Source of the DNA: Escherichia phage vB_EcoM_PTE-Eco09
Strand: one strand, 5' to 3'
DNA: 64,000 nucleotides
Sequence record: PQ306574.1
Under the pieces are notes generated by a model, which saw only the letters and a program-made list of their open reading frames with translations, was not told where the DNA came from and did no database searches. Below, piece after piece: positions 34,709 to 39,516 of this stretch (position 1 is the stretch's first letter; each line of letters starts with the position of its first letter). The position numbers were made by a program, and so were the translations under genes.

Positions 34709-34903
34709 ATGAAAGTTTATACCAATAGTAATAAAGGACAAGATATTACGCCCGGAAAGATGTATGATTTTACCCCGACACGAGACGACGAAAATCCACC
34801 GACAATCGGTTACATCAAAGATGATATAGGTTATCGTATTACGATCCTTCTTGATGGTGGATGTTCTCATCTTCGCGGTGATCGTTGGGAGTTAGTACCA
34901 TGA
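34709..34903 (+). CDS. Small paralog family member A (64 aa)
   Basis: TAGGAGA RBS; motif IGYIKDDIGYRITILLDGGCSHLRGDRWEL shared with the next two ORFs. Confidence 0.5.
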   Translation: MKVYTNSNKGQDITPGKMYDFTPTRDDENPPTIGYIKDDIGYRITILLDGGCSHLRGDRWELVP

Positions 34904-35145
34904 TGTATGTGATGACACCTTATAGTAACCGCAGGTATATTACACCAAATACACTGTATGAATATACACCACATGAAAGATTTGCGAATAGTGGTTATAT
35001 CCGTGATGATAAGGGACACCAGATTTTTATTTGTCTTAAAAATTGTGCACACTTAGACGGTCGAACATGGACACTAATCGAAGAACCAAAACAACCTGAG
35101 AATAAAGGTCTTTGGAACGCAATTAAAAAAATCTTGAAAAAGTAG
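34900..35145 (+). CDS. Small paralog family member B (81 aa)
   Basis: ATGA overlap; GYIRDDKGHQIFICLKNCAHLDGRTWTL. Confidence 0.5.
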   Translation: MMYVMTPYSNRRYITPNTLYEYTPHERFANSGYIRDDKGHQIFICLKNCAHLDGRTWTLIEEPKQPENKGLWNAIKKILKK

Positions 35146-35202: not shown

Positions 35203-35538
35203 ATGAGTATTAAAGAAGTGTTTGTTTATACCGACTATGACGGGTGCGCCTATCTCACTGCTGGAAAACTTTACCGTTGTGAGATTATTCATGGTACGCT
35301 AGGTCGAATTATGTGCGATCCTATTACAAAATTGTGGAAAAATAATCCTAGTGAGCGAGAAACTCTTATTAACCTAGATCCAGACGGTTGTTCACATTTG
35401 GACTATAGAAAATGGCATATCGTGACACATGATGCTTATGGTATTCATCTTGCTACTAAAGAATTAACTATAGAGAAATTCAAGTTTAAAGAAATCCCGT
35501 TTGTATACTGGCTTCGCAATTTGTTTAAGAAAGGATAA
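35203..35538 (+). CDS. Small paralog family member C (111 aa)
   Basis: ATG after the promoter and AAGGAG RBS; DPDGCSHLDYRKWHIV motif. Confidence 0.5.
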   Translation: MSIKEVFVYTDYDGCAYLTAGKLYRCEIIHGTLGRIMCDPITKLWKNNPSERETLINLDPDGCSHLDYRKWHIVTHDAYGIHLATKELTIEKFKFKEIPFVYWLRNLFKKG

Positions 35539-35542
35539 TAAA

Positions 35543-35965
35543 ATGGAAACAATTAACGTACATGTTCGCCGTAGTAAGCTGCGTAGATTCTTCGAAACCG
35601 AAATGCGCAAAACCAATGCGCAGATCAAAGAAAAGTGCTTGAATGATGGTTATGGTGAGTATATTTTCATTCGCTTTAGTCCGCATATGATCGACCGTCT
35701 AACCGATCGTCATATCGATGAACATAAGACAATGGAACTATTCAATAAGATAGAAACTCGTTTGCCGGAGATCTTCGACTTCCTGAAAATGGAAGACCGA
35801 CCTAATCGATTAGAAATTACTGACGGTAACATGTGGATCGGGATGACAGTAGACCTAATTGAAGACGGTAAGCCATATCACGGTCTATGCTGCCGAATGA
35901 TTATAGAGAATCCAAAACGACTGGCGGGTAAAATGTCGGCTGTTGTTTTGAAAGTTGACCAATAA
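35543..35965 (+). CDS. Hypothetical protein (140 aa)
   Basis: ATG with AGAAAGGA RBS. Confidence 0.5.
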   Translation: METINVHVRRSKLRRFFETEMRKTNAQIKEKCLNDGYGEYIFIRFSPHMIDRLTDRHIDEHKTMELFNKIETRLPEIFDFLKMEDRPNRLEITDGNMWIGMTVDLIEDGKPYHGLCCRMIIENPKRLAGKMSAVVLKVDQ

Positions 35966-36050
35966 TGGAGATTGGTTAAAATAATGCTTGACTTTCTGGT
36001 GATATGGCTATATTATGGAATCAGAAAGTTAAGCCAAACAGGAGAAATTA

Positions 36051-36641
36051 ATGTTAAAAGTTCTAAAAGCGATAGTATTGAGTCTGTCACTAGCCGTTGG
36101 TGCTACACACGCATCGACTAGCGCACCGATCAAAAAAGCGCCGATAGACAACTTTACAGCACACCAACTAGATAATTTACATTTCGCCTATCAATACGGC
36201 GAACAATTCGAGAAAAGCGGTAAGTTGAAAAAGGACCATCCGAATATTCGCTATAACGGAAAGGGTTTAGGTCACATCCTGGCGGGTATCGCATGGCAAG
36301 AATCAAGCGCGGGTGCAAACTTAGCACCAAAGAAAAATCATCATGCTTATGGATTATTTCAAAATTACCTTAAAACGGTGAAAGCGAAAAATGCAAAGCG
36401 CGGTGTTAAAATGAGTGATCGCCAGACTATCAACTTTATCATGAATCGCGAGGTTTCTGCATTCTACGCGATGGATGAGTTAGCATACTGGCTGGATGTT
36501 CGAAACGGTAATATCCGACTCGCGCTAGCTTCTTACAATGCTGGATGGAACTATAAAGCCGGATTAGGTTATGCTGATGACGTACTAAAAAAGGCTAACC
36601 ATCTAAAGAGTAAAGGCATTCTTAAGACTAAACGCTATTGA
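36051..36641 (+). CDS. Secreted lytic transglycosylase (SLT domain) with signal peptide
   Basis: N-terminal signal peptide (MLKVLKAIVLSLSLAVGATHA); SLT motifs GIAWQESS, YGLFQ, YNAG. Confidence 0.65.
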   Translation: MLKVLKAIVLSLSLAVGATHASTSAPIKKAPIDNFTAHQLDNLHFAYQYGEQFEKSGKLKKDHPNIRYNGKGLGHILAGIAWQESSAGANLAPKKNHHAYGLFQNYLKTVKAKNAKRGVKMSDRQTINFIMNREVSAFYAMDELAYWLDVRNGNIRLALASYNAGWNYKAGLGYADDVLKKANHLKSKGILKTKRY

Positions 36642-36648
36642 GGAATAT

Positions 36649-37008
36649 ATGAAAAAGTTGACAATAGTTGCTATGATTGCTATGATGTTCTCGGCTGGTG
36701 CGCTTGCTAGTAATGAGCGCCCTTATCCAAAGTTCGAATACAAAGGATTTGAGATCAACAAAAAGATCATTAAAACCTTCTGTGATGATGATAACATGTG
36801 TAGCGATTTTATCGCACTTGAACTTGACGAGGCATACAAACAAGGTCGAGACGAAAAACGAAAAAATCGAGCGTGGGATCTGAGTATTGCCAGCTTTGCT
36901 AAAACAAAACGTAACCTGTGTGATACTGCCCCTGATAAGCAATTATGCTTTGCTTATCGCGACACACTGTTAAGCCGTTTTATGGCTGGGTTGTCTTCCC
37001 GTGACTAA
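36649..37008 (+). CDS. Secreted Cys-containing protein of unknown function
   Basis: Signal peptide (MKKLTIVAMIAMMFSAGALA); four Cys; 8 nt after the SLT gene. Confidence 0.5.
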   Translation: MKKLTIVAMIAMMFSAGALASNERPYPKFEYKGFEINKKIIKTFCDDDNMCSDFIALELDEAYKQGRDEKRKNRAWDLSIASFAKTKRNLCDTAPDKQLCFAYRDTLLSRFMAGLSSRD

Positions 37009-37023
37009 TTAGAGGTTTATAAT

Positions 37024-37479
37024 ATGATTATTGATACTGTAAAGGGCGATCTCATCGCCCTGTTTAAACAAGGAAACGGTCATTTAATTCATGGTTGTAA
37101 TTGTTTTCATACTATGGGCGCTGGTATTGCTGCGGATATCGCGAAAGAGTTCCCGCAAGCGTTAGAGATTGACAAGCAAACTTCTCGCGGTAAGGTAGAA
37201 AAGTTGGGTGGGTTTAGTGTCTGGACGCATCAAGTTAATGGTTATAACTGGTGCGTGGTGAATCTCTATACCCAATTCCGACCGGGTCCAAATGCTGAAT
37301 ATGGTGCTATCCTGAAAGGATTTGAGACTCTCAATGATGTTTTTGAAGGTGCTATACAGCCTTTCTATATCCCTAAAATCGGTTGCGGTATCGGTGGCCT
37401 TGAGTGGGAATGTGTAGAAGAAATCATTAATATTGCTACTCCAGACATTAACATTGTGGTGGTGGAATATGACAAATAA
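37024..37479 (+). CDS. Macro-domain-like protein (possible ADP-ribose binding/hydrolase)
   Basis: HGCNCFHTMGAGIAADI and IPKIGCGIGGL resemble the two glycine-rich macro-domain motifs. Confidence 0.45.
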   Translation: MIIDTVKGDLIALFKQGNGHLIHGCNCFHTMGAGIAADIAKEFPQALEIDKQTSRGKVEKLGGFSVWTHQVNGYNWCVVNLYTQFRPGPNAEYGAILKGFETLNDVFEGAIQPFYIPKIGCGIGGLEWECVEEIINIATPDINIVVVEYDK

Positions 37480-37663
37480 AAATGACCTCTATTCCGGTTA
37501 TTGGGTGAAACGTCAGTCTGTGGAAAACGTAACTTGTTTTCGTTGTTTCACCGAATACAATATAAAAACCGCTCCTGTTAGTGTTCCAAAGACAGACGGG
37601 TATTATATTAAAGAACCGCATTGCCCTAAATGTAAATGTCGATTATATTGGAGTCATCTATGA
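37469..37663 (+). CDS. Small zinc-ribbon-like protein (64 aa)
   Basis: CFRC..CPKCKC cysteine pairs; GGTGGTGG RBS. Confidence 0.4.
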   Translation: MTNKNDLYSGYWVKRQSVENVTCFRCFTEYNIKTAPVSVPKTDGYYIKEPHCPKCKCRLYWSHL

Positions 37664-37878
37664 AGAAGCCTAATACCGCTCACATGAAGGAAAACTGCCG
37701 ATGTGTTAGATGTGGTTGGCCTATTGTCTTCACTTGCTGTAACGACGATATGCAGCGTTTACCGTGGGGAATGTGGGATTGGTGGATGTATTGTAGCAAT
37801 AAAGGATGCATCCACCACGAAGGCGAAGGAGTATTTCAGGAAACGCCTGATTGGGTGGAGGTGATAGAAAATGCTTGA
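37660..37878 (+). CDS. Small Cys/Trp-rich protein (72 aa)
   Basis: CRCVRCGW..CCNDD..C..C; TTGGAG RBS. Confidence 0.4.
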   Translation: MKKPNTAHMKENCRCVRCGWPIVFTCCNDDMQRLPWGMWDWWMYCSNKGCIHHEGEGVFQETPDWVEVIENA

Positions 37879-38164
37879 GACTACCATTAACCTTGTTATG
37901 TGGACTTTCAATTTCGTTATTGTTATTATGGCGGGTATTGAGATTGTCAAGCAATATCTGTTACAATCCAGAAATAAACATGTTGTAATTGATATGGACT
38001 CTCAAGGAAATAAGCTGATCCGGTTAGAAGATGGTCGGGAATATTGGGTAGGTTATCCAAAGACACTACGCGGATTTATCTTTGCTATGGGGGTTTGCTT
38101 CTTTTTCCTTTGTATCTGGACTTATATCGGTTTAGGCCTTGTTGGATTTTTGGAGATTAATTAA
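37871..38164 (+). CDS. Small membrane protein (97 aa)
   Basis: Two hydrophobic segments; overlaps neighbours by a few nt. Confidence 0.5.
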   Translation: MLETTINLVMWTFNFVIVIMAGIEIVKQYLLQSRNKHVVIDMDSQGNKLIRLEDGREYWVGYPKTLRGFIFAMGVCFFFLCIWTYIGLGLVGFLEIN

Positions 38165-38760
38165 TGGCGCAATTATATTTCTACTATGCATCTATGAACG
38201 CTGGCAAATCAACTTCTCTGTTACAAAGTGCTTATAACTATACCGAACGTGATATGCGAGTATTAATTCTTAAGCCAGCGATTGATAATCGAGATTCAGA
38301 AAGTGAAGTTGTTTCCCGAATTGGTCTAAGTGCTCCAGCGATCACCTTCACTAAATCGGATGATCTTTTCGATTTGGTTTATCGTGAATCATTAGGTAAG
38401 CGTAGACCGGATCGCTGGCGTCCTGATGCTGTATTTGTAGATGAAGCCCAATTTATGACTAAAGAGCATGTTTTAGGCTTGTGTGCGCTTGTTGATGATG
38501 CAAATATCCCTGTACTGTGCTATGGCCTTCGCACCGACTTTCAGGGCAATCTATTTGAAGGATCTGCGGCATTAATGGCATTTGCTGATAAACTGGTCGA
38601 AATGAAGGGTATTTGTCATTGTGGCAAGAAAGCAACAATGGTCCTTCGTGTAGATAAAGAGGGTAATGTTATTCGCGATGGTGCTCAAATAGAAGTTGGT
38701 GCAGAGGATAAATATGTCTCTGTGTGCCGTAAACATTTTATTGACGGTACTACCAAATAA
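38164..38760 (+). CDS. tk: Thymidine kinase
   Basis: YASMNAGKSTSLLQ P-loop, VFVDEAQF, YGLRTDFQGNLFEGS, CHCGKKA resemble T4 Tk. Confidence 0.9.
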   Translation: MAQLYFYYASMNAGKSTSLLQSAYNYTERDMRVLILKPAIDNRDSESEVVSRIGLSAPAITFTKSDDLFDLVYRESLGKRRPDRWRPDAVFVDEAQFMTKEHVLGLCALVDDANIPVLCYGLRTDFQGNLFEGSAALMAFADKLVEMKGICHCGKKATMVLRVDKEGNVIRDGAQIEVGAEDKYVSVCRKHFIDGTTK

Positions 38761-38779
38761 GAGTTAATCATAAATAAAG

Positions 38780-38819
38780 CCCCAGATTATAAATATAACT
38801 GAATATTTTTAATCTGGGG
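38780..38819 (+). promoter_or_regulatory. Long hairpin carrying a TATAAATA late-promoter motif in its loop
   Basis: CCCCAGATT..(22-nt loop containing TATAAATA at 38788-38795)..AATCTGGGG, about 33 nt upstream of the ATG at 38829. Confidence 0.35.
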
Positions 38820-38828
38820 GAATGACTT

Positions 38829-39131
38829 ATGTCATTTATTCGTAAAACTCTAACAGCGGCAATATGCTTGACTGCGGTCGGAAGTGTCAGTGCTGATCAA
38901 TATGATCCAACTGGTGACTTTACTGATTATTTCGACGGTGCAATGATAGTATATGTAAACAAAATATCTCCTTCCATTGAAACCAGCCAGAAATTTCATG
39001 CCCATATTATGAAGATGTATGCTCGTAGTAAATGTATGGATTCTAAGCAGTGTTTTATTATGGGGGAATATGCCGCACAACAGTTTGTTATGTTGCATAA
39101 TATGGAGAATCGAGAACATGAAATTCAGTGA
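38829..39131 (+). CDS. Secreted protein of unknown function (100 aa)
   Basis: Signal peptide MSFIRKTLTAAICLTAVGSVSA; GGGGGAA RBS. Confidence 0.5.
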   Translation: MSFIRKTLTAAICLTAVGSVSADQYDPTGDFTDYFDGAMIVYVNKISPSIETSQKFHAHIMKMYARSKCMDSKQCFIMGEYAAQQFVMLHNMENREHEIQ

Positions 39132-39516
39132 TTTTCGAAAGACGTCCGAAGATGGGAAAGCTAATAAAGTTGACCGCTTTATCGGTGAATGTCTGATGAG
39201 TGTTACTTATATGCATTCTGCGCATTTTGGAGTAACTGGTCCTGGATCTTATGCAAAACATAAGGCTCTAGAAGAGTTCTATCTTGAAATGCAAGAATTG
39301 GTTGATGATTTCACTGAAACCAATATTGGGATCACTGGTCGTTATCAGCCAACGTTGGTCGTCCGCAAGGAGATGAGCGAAATTGCCTATTTGCAAGAGT
39401 TAACGCAAATGGCTAGTGAGATTTATAATGATGTTGATAGCTCGTTACAGAGCGTTTTAGACGATATCAAAGCTCTATGCTTTAAAACAATTTATAAACT
39501 CACTCGATTGGCTTAA
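39118..39516 (+). CDS. Hypothetical protein (132 aa)
   Basis: First ATG with a weak RBS in a long track ORF; start uncertain. Confidence 0.45.
   Translation: MKFSDFRKTSEDGKANKVDRFIGECLMSVTYMHSAHFGVTGPGSYAKHKALEEFYLEMQELVDDFTETNIGITGRYQPTLVVRKEMSEIAYLQELTQMASEIYNDVDSSLQSVLDDIKALCFKTIYKLTRLA

Follow-up and report, generated by a model that had tools for sequence, protein, structure and literature searches.

The vs.1-vs cassette of an RB49-like coliphage: a predicted exported lytic transglycosylase followed by a four-cysteine protein with an export-type N-terminus

We analysed a stretch of 64,000 nucleotides (nt) of Escherichia phage vB_EcoM_PTE-Eco09 (sequence record PQ306574.1; one strand, 5′ to 3′), hereafter the window, and in particular two adjacent open reading frames (ORFs) at positions 36051-37008. 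A first-pass annotation, made from the letters alone, had described the pair as a signal-peptide protein with SLT motifs and a second signal-peptide protein with four cysteines. Both ORFs were confirmed at their coordinates (Table 1), as were the motifs GIAWQESS, YGLFQ and YNAG (the last as SYNAG) in the first and the four cysteines (Cys45, Cys51, Cys91 and Cys100) in the second. The two genes are indeed adjacent, but the gap between them measures 7 nt (36642-36648) and not 8 nt as first given. DNA of the region 35400-39300 was 97.6-99.1% identical to that of phages FL37, W115, RB49 and others, and by this measure the window is that of an RB49-like Krischvirus (Straboviridae). The annotated gene order of RB49 is regB, vs.1, vs, tk.4, three small ORFs, tk, rI and rI.-1; T2 shows the same order across regB-vs.1-vs-tk.4-...-tk-rI, and the order is also common to T4. 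Because of the DNA identity to the RB49 group, the RB49 gene names and the synteny with T2, the pair is identified, by sequence comparison, as the RB49 version of vs.1-vs, an early cassette conserved among T4-like phages. It is ordinary for T4-like phages, with both genes already named and conserved, and is in this sense already known. The suggestion that such genes are unusual for an early or accessory phage region was not borne out: this is a standard T4-like cassette, 97-98% identical to the annotated RB49 genes and syntenic with T2/T4, and Vs.1 occurs in 2033 phage records. It had also escaped the first-pass annotation that the second ORF is the gene annotated as 'valyl-tRNA synthetase modifier'. 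The sequence features of the two ORFs are far beyond chance.

Table 1. Features of the vs.1-vs locus and its surroundings (positions are those of the window; aa, amino acids; RBS, ribosome-binding site).
Feature	Position	Strand	Description and basis
Tandem paralogues, three small ORFs	34709-34903, 34885-35145, 35203-35538	+	Common pattern V-x-T...Y...T...I-x-L...C-x-H-L...W
Sigma-70-like match, regB-vs.1 gap	35955-35982	+	TTGACC-16-TAAAAT; motif match
Sigma-70-like match, regB-vs.1 gap	35988-36016	+	TTGACT-17-TATTAT; motif match
vs.1 RBS	36040-36044		AGGAG, six bases 5′ of the ATG
vs.1	36051..36641	+	196-aa precursor; predicted exported SLT-domain (family 1, GH23-type) lytic transglycosylase
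Vs.1 signal peptide	36051..36113	+	About aa 1-21, MLKVLKAIVLSLSLAVGATHA, then STS; predicted by n/h/c rule, cleavage site approximate
Glu84 codon of vs.1	36300..36302	+	Predicted catalytic acid/base (motif AWQES); invariance and Slt70 alignment
vs RBS	36640-36644		GAGGA, overlapping the vs.1 stop codon
vs	36649..37008	+	119-aa precursor; small four-helix protein, predicted exported, annotated 'valyl-tRNA synthetase modifier'
Vs signal peptide	36649..36708	+	About aa 1-20, MKKLTIVAMIAMMFSAGALA, then SNE; predicted by n/h/c rule
Sigma-70-like match inside first vs codons	36658-36686	+	TTGACA-17-TATGAT, 11/12, extended -10 TG
Cysteine codons of vs (span)	36781..36948	+	Invariant; C45 36781-83, C51 36799-01, C91 36919-21, C100 36946-48
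tk.4 orthologue	37024-37479	+	Macrodomain; Pfam Macro E 4.5e-7, NCBIfam antitoxin DarG E 1.4e-14
Small ORF between tk.4 and tk	37433-37663	+	phrog_4864; overlaps the next ORF
Small ORF between tk.4 and tk	37636-37878	+	phrog_2306
97-aa ORF just upstream of tk	37871-38164	+	phrog_16027, E 2e-61
rI antiholin	38829..39131	+	Periplasmic lysis-inhibition regulator; PF24205 E 1.6e-23 (82.8 bits, cut-off 27), phrog_1246 E 3.7e-26
rI.-1 orthologue	39118-39516	+	phrog_858 'starvation-inducible transcriptional regulator', E 1e-43; overlaps the end of rI

The vs.1 product scored 26.1 bits against the Pfam SLT model (PF01464; cut-off 21.3, E 6.6e-6), in agreement with its first assignment to the SLT-family lytic transglycosylases (LTs), and matched phrog_600 with an E of 6e-60. 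It was 98% identical to Vs.1 of RB49 and 49% identical to Vs.1 of T2. The phrog_600 match, together with the position between regB and vs, makes it an orthologue of T4/RB49 Vs.1 (T4 ORF 61.4), with which it shares location and the layout of a signal peptide followed by an SLT domain; in Vs.1 of the RB49 type the first conserved helix stands ~12 residues further from the signal peptide. SLT similarity of vs.1 was reported for six T4-like phages by Nolan et al. 2006 (PMC1524935), who cite earlier PSI-BLAST results on T4 vs.1. Pfam SLT was matched by 21/22 Vs.1 relatives, with a best E of 1.3e-7. Residues E84, S86, Y100, G101, F103, Q104, N105, S161, Y162, A164 and G165 were invariant across 22 homologues, and N163 was retained in at least 90% of them. 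The catalytic glutamate is thereby intact, within E84-S85-S86. Motifs II and III of the SLT family read G-L-M-Q and A-Y-N-x-G; the matching segments of Vs.1, Y100-G-L-F-Q-N105 and S161-Y-N-A-G165, are invariant or nearly so.

Alignment by hhalign placed AWQES...YGLFQ of Vs.1 on ARQES...SGLMQ of E. coli Slt70, with Glu84 falling on residue 505 of the E. coli Slt precursor, which we take to be mature Glu478, the catalytic residue of Slt70. The pairwise P was only 0.039, and the register of Glu84 rests on the motifs. An AlphaFold2 model of Vs.1, computed from the family alignment, had a mean predicted local distance difference test score (pLDDT) of 83.6, its N-terminus being a low-confidence helix followed by a disordered linker. 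When this model was searched against the Protein Data Bank (PDB) with Foldseek, the top 15 matches were all LTs (MltD, Slt, LtgA, Cj0843c and Slt70), with probabilities of 0.80-1.00, a best E of 3.5e-3 and TM-scores of 0.40-0.50. The model thus gives moderate support to a goose-lysozyme-like all-helical fold for Vs.1. Neither the Vs.1 profile nor its SLT core by itself matched an LT when searched against PDB sequences, and NCBIfam has no model for Vs.1, Vs or RI.

Like Slt70, MltD and LtgA, Vs.1 has a catalytic Glu in an E-S motif, GLMQ-like and AYNAG-like motifs and, in the model, a lysozyme-like all-helical fold. It differs from these enzymes in a conserved N-terminal helix, F-x3-Q-x-D-N-L-x-F-A-Y-x-x-G, which lies outside the Pfam domain. 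Its architecture, a single domain of ~175 aa behind a signal peptide, resembles that of the 'specialised' LTs, small and Sec-exported, which serve secretion and conjugation systems (VirB1, P19 and EtgA, for example), whereas the gene lies in the early region of a virulent phage and not in a secretion-system operon or lysis cassette. Comparison of Vs.1 by tblastn with 72,556 plasmids revealed no relatives, and a sequence link to the conjugation-type enzymes was dropped for this reason. Among phages, tblastn matches span Straboviridae, Felixounavirus, Kuttervirus (Ackermannviridae), Slopekvirus, the RB43 group and a 230-kb Aeromonas phage. Every homologue translated from RB43, Slopekvirus, Felixounavirus, Kuttervirus and the Aeromonas phage keeps the E-S, G-x-F/W-Q and Y-N-A-G motifs; in Felixounavirus the vs.1 gene adjoins rIIA/rIIB and pnk. 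Judged by its sequence, Vs.1 is best described as a very divergent, phage-restricted clade of family-1 LTs.

The N-termini of both Vs.1 and Vs carry two lysines, an uncharged hydrophobic core and a small-x-small site (...GATHA before STS and ...GALA before SNE, respectively). We applied a fixed heuristic rule (basic n-region, uncharged hydrophobic h-region of 10-18 residues, small residues at -3/-1) to every ATG-initiated ORF of at least 80 aa on both strands of the window. Only 3 of the 113 ORFs passed, and these were exactly Vs.1, Vs and RI, the proteins for which signal peptides had been proposed beforehand. The rule also passed 21/22 Vs.1 relatives, the single failure being N-terminally truncated, and 15/15 Vs relatives. 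Signal-peptide sequence varies across the Vs.1 relatives while the n/h/c character is kept in those 21, and homologues from Felixounavirus, Kuttervirus, Slopekvirus, RB43 and the Aeromonas phage likewise begin with signal peptides. In the Vs family the N-terminus is hydrophobic in every one of the 15 members and unconserved in sequence; one member (P0034) has a lipobox, L-S-G-C.

The vs product matched phrog_1256 ('valyl tRNA synthetase modifier') with an E of 2.9e-33, and its close relatives have a precomputed match to PF26829. It was 97% identical to RB49 Vs. By profile, by position between vs.1 and tk.4 and by its four conserved cysteines it belongs to the Vs family (phrog_1256, PF26829) and is an orthologue of T4 Vs, yet it is only 29% identical to Vs of T2/T4, the T2 protein sharing all four cysteines. 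The family is small: at 50% identity, 1.84 billion proteins yielded 16 representatives, of which the real ones all look phage-derived; a 395-aa match with five 'Vs-like' stretches (P0041) proved to be an unrelated tandem-repeat translation. The cysteines fall into two pairs at helix boundaries, Cx5C and Cx8C, and were invariant in 15 and in 17 family sequences. Besides them, Y63, G66 and G114 were invariant in the 15 aligned members. An AlphaFold2 model of Vs (pLDDT 79.4) contains four helices; in it the turn joining helices 1 and 2 has C45 on one side and C51 on the other, and C91 and C100 likewise stand on either side of the loop that leads to the last helix. The two pairs are presumed, on this model, to form two local disulfides.

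The exported look of Vs and its four invariant cysteines conflict, as far as sequence can tell, with the label 'valyl-tRNA synthetase (ValRS) modifier', which places the protein in the cytoplasm. That label is an assignment made for T4 Vs, and a role in binding ValRS is hard to reconcile with an export signal conserved throughout the family. The established explanation would have Vs act as a cytoplasmic 'tau' factor on host ValRS, with vs.1 its neighbour by inherited synteny and any vs.1 phenotype caused by polarity on vs; the hydrophobic N-terminus of Vs would then be no working export signal, or only part of the Vs pool would be exported. Mutants of vs were selected on hosts with a temperature-sensitive valS, which implies an effect in vivo. 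By the account of Muller & Marchin 1975/1977 given in PMC8076793, T4 Vs binds ValRS and changes its properties. Set against this are the basic-hydrophobic-AXA N-terminus found in 15/15 members despite its unconserved sequence, the one lipobox, and the two invariant cysteine pairs, which are typical of periplasmic disulfide proteins. The original T4 record (X04567), too, lists vs only as the unnamed ORF 60.9. His-tagged T4 Vs was insoluble when made in the E. coli cytoplasm (PMC8076793), a behaviour that would at any rate fit an exported disulfide protein.

The two genes are closely linked in the lineages in which vs was examined. They are separated by 7 nt in the window; they overlap by 8 nt in T2/T4 and by 4 nt in Acinetobacter phage 133, and Proteus phage SJ_PmiM (Bragavirus) and Serratia phage Muldoon have 3 nt between them. 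In five genera, then, vs comes directly after vs.1, within a few nucleotides. Vs.1 lay immediately upstream in every lineage in which the Vs gene was examined, the one exception being a truncated remnant in a messy record. Since Vs stood behind Vs.1 in the lineages examined while Vs.1 often occurs without Vs, Vs looks like an optional accessory to Vs.1 rather than the reverse. An apparent Vs.1-Vs fusion ORF in Klebsiella phage vB_Kpn_AM_K4 was discarded, as it joins a truncated Vs remnant in frame to unrelated repeated sequence. This record (PP355766.1, 272912-277115), a 289-kb 'Straboviridae' entry with internally duplicated protein segments, looks like an assembly or rearrangement artefact. 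In Acinetobacter phage 133 (2270-2689 of the stretch L003) and Proteus phage SJ_PmiM (2279-2719 of L010), vs is followed not by the tk.4 macrodomain but by a protein of ~140 aa with a signal-peptide or lipoprotein-like N-terminus (MKYLVLLLALLSPVAFA... and MKYLLACLVFFSSCSF...), giving a run of three predicted exported proteins.

In the T4 record X04567 a potential -35/-10 is marked immediately 5′ of the vs.1 ORF and none for vs. In the window, two sigma-70-like matches lie in the corresponding regB-vs.1 gap and are a probable early promoter for vs.1-vs; the count of promoter-like sites in the region was not above shuffled expectation, and position is the sole argument. The best sigma-70-like match of the region lies inside the first vs codons (Table 1). 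Transcripts from it would skip vs.1 and the vs start and read into tk.4, and the match may be a by-product of signal-peptide codons.

Published fitness data for both genes are available for T4, in the supplementary tables of a HIDEN-SEQ transposon-sequencing preprint (bioRxiv 10.1101/2025.11.20.689424), from which all values here are taken. On LB plates, vs and vs.1 were both non-essential. In the LB liquid control, after one round, mean reads per site were 26.6 for vs and 22.6 for vs.1, compared with 179 for regB, 290 for tk.4, 652 for vs.3 and 767 for tk.3, which are flanking non-essential genes. In M9-glucose, vs stood at the top of the screen with an additional log2 change of -2.19 (q about 0), and vs.1 reached -0.87 (p 0.0055, q 0.16). 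On the clinical E. coli strain CFE299 the log2 fold changes were -1.20 (q 0.015) for vs.1 and -1.04 for vs; vs.1 is among the 11 genes significantly depleted on this host (Extended Data Table 6), and the main text of the preprint is silent on vs.1. The fitness defects of vs and vs.1 in T4 thus run in the same direction.

The authors of the preprint tie the M9 phenotype of vs to its ValRS role (bioRxiv 10.1101/2025.11.20.689424). In favour of this explanation, it is in minimal medium that the vs knockout is specifically impaired, and aminoacylation could be important there; the M9 defect is larger for vs than for vs.1, as partial polarity predicts; and Vs.1 works without Vs in many phages. On CFE299, against it, vs.1 is at least as depleted as vs. 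Taking these points with the export signature described above, we consider a purely cytoplasmic ValRS factor to be doubtful, if still a serious contender.

The same data bear on a second explanation, in which Vs would be a proteinaceous inhibitor or governor of Vs.1 that prevents early lysis of the infected cell. The tight translational coupling, with the enzyme gene first, in five genera would suit such a pair, and so would the greater cost of losing vs than vs.1 in M9, as if unrestrained enzyme were harmful. Periplasmic inhibition of an LT is known in bacteria, where Ivy inhibits MltB. Among phages, Spackle is the precedent of an early Sec-exported T4 muramidase inhibitor; the likeness to Spackle and the gp5 lysozyme is that of a small, early, Sec-exported helical or disulfide-containing periplasmic protein acting on a murein-cleaving enzyme (PMC7677548). 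The Vs.1 proteins themselves differ in their cysteines, with 2-4 in RB43, Felixounavirus, AS-szw, Kuttervirus and Slopekvirus, which lack a linked Vs, versus 0-1 in the Vs-linked homologues (five versus five, some of the cysteines lying in signal peptides), which hints at a different way of stabilising or regulating the enzyme. Vs showed no sequence or fold similarity to the known inhibitor families Spackle, Ivy, MliC/PliC and PliG, and the five other lineages with Vs.1 alone speak against an obligate pairing. We rate a dedicated inhibitor as rather unlikely.

A third possibility is that vs.1-vs serves superinfection exclusion or resistance to lysis from without, an altered sacculus or periplasm defeating the tail-tip lysozymes of incoming phages. 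The predicted early expression and periplasmic location would be shared with the T4 exclusion proteins Imm and Spackle, and the pair benefits fitness not on plates but in liquid mass culture, a setting in which secondary adsorption is frequent. Cut glycan strands, however, should make entry easier for an incoming phage, not harder, and in the literature searched no such phenotype is ascribed to vs or vs.1. This proposal is very improbable.

A different lead came from the cysteines of Vs. CP12, a small protein with two Cys pairs, is redox-switched and clamps GAPDH and PRK; Vs could be a remote relative of it, a disulfide-dependent clamp on a host enzyme for which ValRS would be the obvious candidate. 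Four of the six weak PDB matches of the Vs profile were to CP12 (E 1-3.7, nearly end to end), the alignments took in the C-terminal loop C-D-x-x-P-D/E-x-x-x-C-x-x-Y, and CP12 was the sole Pfam family matched by more than one Vs member (2/15, best E 0.065, far below gathering). Against a 23-sequence CP12 alignment, hhalign placed all four Cys in register with a probability of 31% and a P of 5e-4. Against the real score of 25.5, 43 full column shuffles gave 10.7 +/- 2.2, and 212 shuffles in which the cysteine columns were held fixed gave 10.9 +/- 2.3 (max 19.8), with 0/212 reaching it (Gumbel P ~2e-4); since it exceeds the Cys-fixed shuffles, the resemblance goes beyond cysteine spacing. T4-like cyanophages carry cp12 (PMC3037559 and others). 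The two proteins are of similar size with the two Cys pairs in the same order, but Vs is predicted to be folded rather than disordered, and it has a signal peptide whereas CP12 is cytosolic. The window Vs itself had no Pfam match to CP12 (PF02672) even at E up to 10 and is not counted as a member of that family; structure searches gave no support; and CP12 was picked post hoc from tens of thousands of families, the match not being significant database-wide. No relative was found when cyanobacterial CP12 was searched by tblastn against the phage collection, and our literature search found no paper connecting Vs and CP12. Kinship with CP12 is improbable.

The explanation we prefer is one in which both proteins act in the cell envelope. 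The genes vs.1 and vs would be made early from the promoter in the regB-vs.1 gap, translationally coupled, and their products exported by Sec and processed, Vs being oxidised to two disulfides in the periplasm. Vs.1, with Glu84 as acid/base, would cleave the bonds between N-acetylmuramic acid (MurNAc) and N-acetylglucosamine (GlcNAc) to leave 1,6-anhydro-MurNAc ends, a cutting that would amount to local remodelling of the infected cell's sacculus. Vs, in the same compartment, would most simply be a partner or regulator of Vs.1. The module is dispensable on rich plates, and in T4 it raises fitness in liquid, more so in minimal medium and on the clinical host. We hold its core, an exported transglycosylase Vs.1 and an exported Vs that are both periplasmic, to be probable, with somewhat better than an even chance. 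A direct functional interaction of the two within this scheme is put forward tentatively. Equally tentative is the proposal that Vs is an exported, disulfide-bonded periplasmic protein working with or restraining Vs.1, the M9 defect reflecting an envelope or murein function and the ValRS effect being secondary; that effect may come from association when compartments mix at breakage, from moonlighting, or from misassignment of the vs locus to this ORF.

Several observations weigh against this envelope explanation. The SLT match of Vs.1 is remote, as seen from the missing PDB sequence match, the low TM-scores and the Slt70 alignment above. The signal peptides were judged by a home-made rule and not by SignalP. 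Published work gives T4 Vs a cytoplasmic role, in which it binds and alters host ValRS (PMC8076793; bioRxiv 10.1101/2025.11.20.689424), and our literature search found no enzymology, localisation or interaction work on Vs.1 or Vs. A phenotype common to both genes could also arise through polar effects of vs.1 insertions on vs. Vs was found in 796 (T4-type) plus 354 (RB49-type) records versus the 2033 of Vs.1, and vs.1 stands without an adjacent vs in RB43, Slopekvirus, Felixounavirus, Kuttervirus and Aeromonas phage AS-szw. Since Vs.1 is present without Vs in these five lineages, Vs is not required for Vs.1 function in general. Adjacency in T4-like phages, moreover, is often mere inherited synteny.

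The third secreted protein reported by the first-pass annotation does have an export-type N-terminus, but it is the known antiholin RI and lies outside the vs.1-vs unit. It is annotated as rI in RB49 and matched the solved T4 antiholin 6psk (E 0.0092), and it shares with T4 RI the N-terminal export/anchor segment and a Cx5C pair. Its gene lies 1.8 kb downstream of vs.1-vs and belongs to a separate lysis-inhibition system. As Vs also has a Cx5C pair, a paralogy of Vs and RI was considered and rejected (hhalign P 0.33).

Among the remaining neighbours, the T4 orthologue of tk.4 has been named AdfM and counters the DarTG2 defence system (bioRxiv 10.1101/2025.11.20.689424). The two overlapping small ORFs between tk.4 and tk contain CxxC-type clusters (CPKCKC; CRCVRCGW ... 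C-x-N-K-G-C), a composition that suggests zinc-binding mini-proteins. The 97-aa ORF upstream of tk has strongly hydrophobic segments at aa about 15-26 and 70-90, and its product is probably, from this profile, a small inner-membrane protein. The rI.-1 product looks Dps-like. Upstream of regB, after nrdC.11, three consecutive small ORFs are tandem paralogues (phrog_6261 / phrog_15978).

To a cassette already known, the present analysis adds the register of Glu84 on Slt70, the finding that the nearest solved folds of Vs.1 are LTs throughout, the family-wide export and cysteine pattern of Vs, the survey of vs.1-vs coupling, the matching T4 fitness defects and the CP12 lead. Vs.1 is among the most widespread uncharacterised accessory genes of large virulent phages, and it poses the puzzle of why a lytic phage would export an enzyme that cuts murein to the periplasm at an early stage of infection. 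In a recent genome-wide screen of T4, no gene scored more strongly than vs for fitness in minimal medium, and the accepted mechanism of Vs sits awkwardly with its sequence. The residual interest of the locus lies in these two matters, the annotation of Vs against its exported look and the role of a widespread phage transglycosylase predicted to be early and periplasmic. If the envelope explanation is true, vs.1-vs would be a new periplasmic enzyme-partner module, relevant to phage growth on slow-growing hosts.

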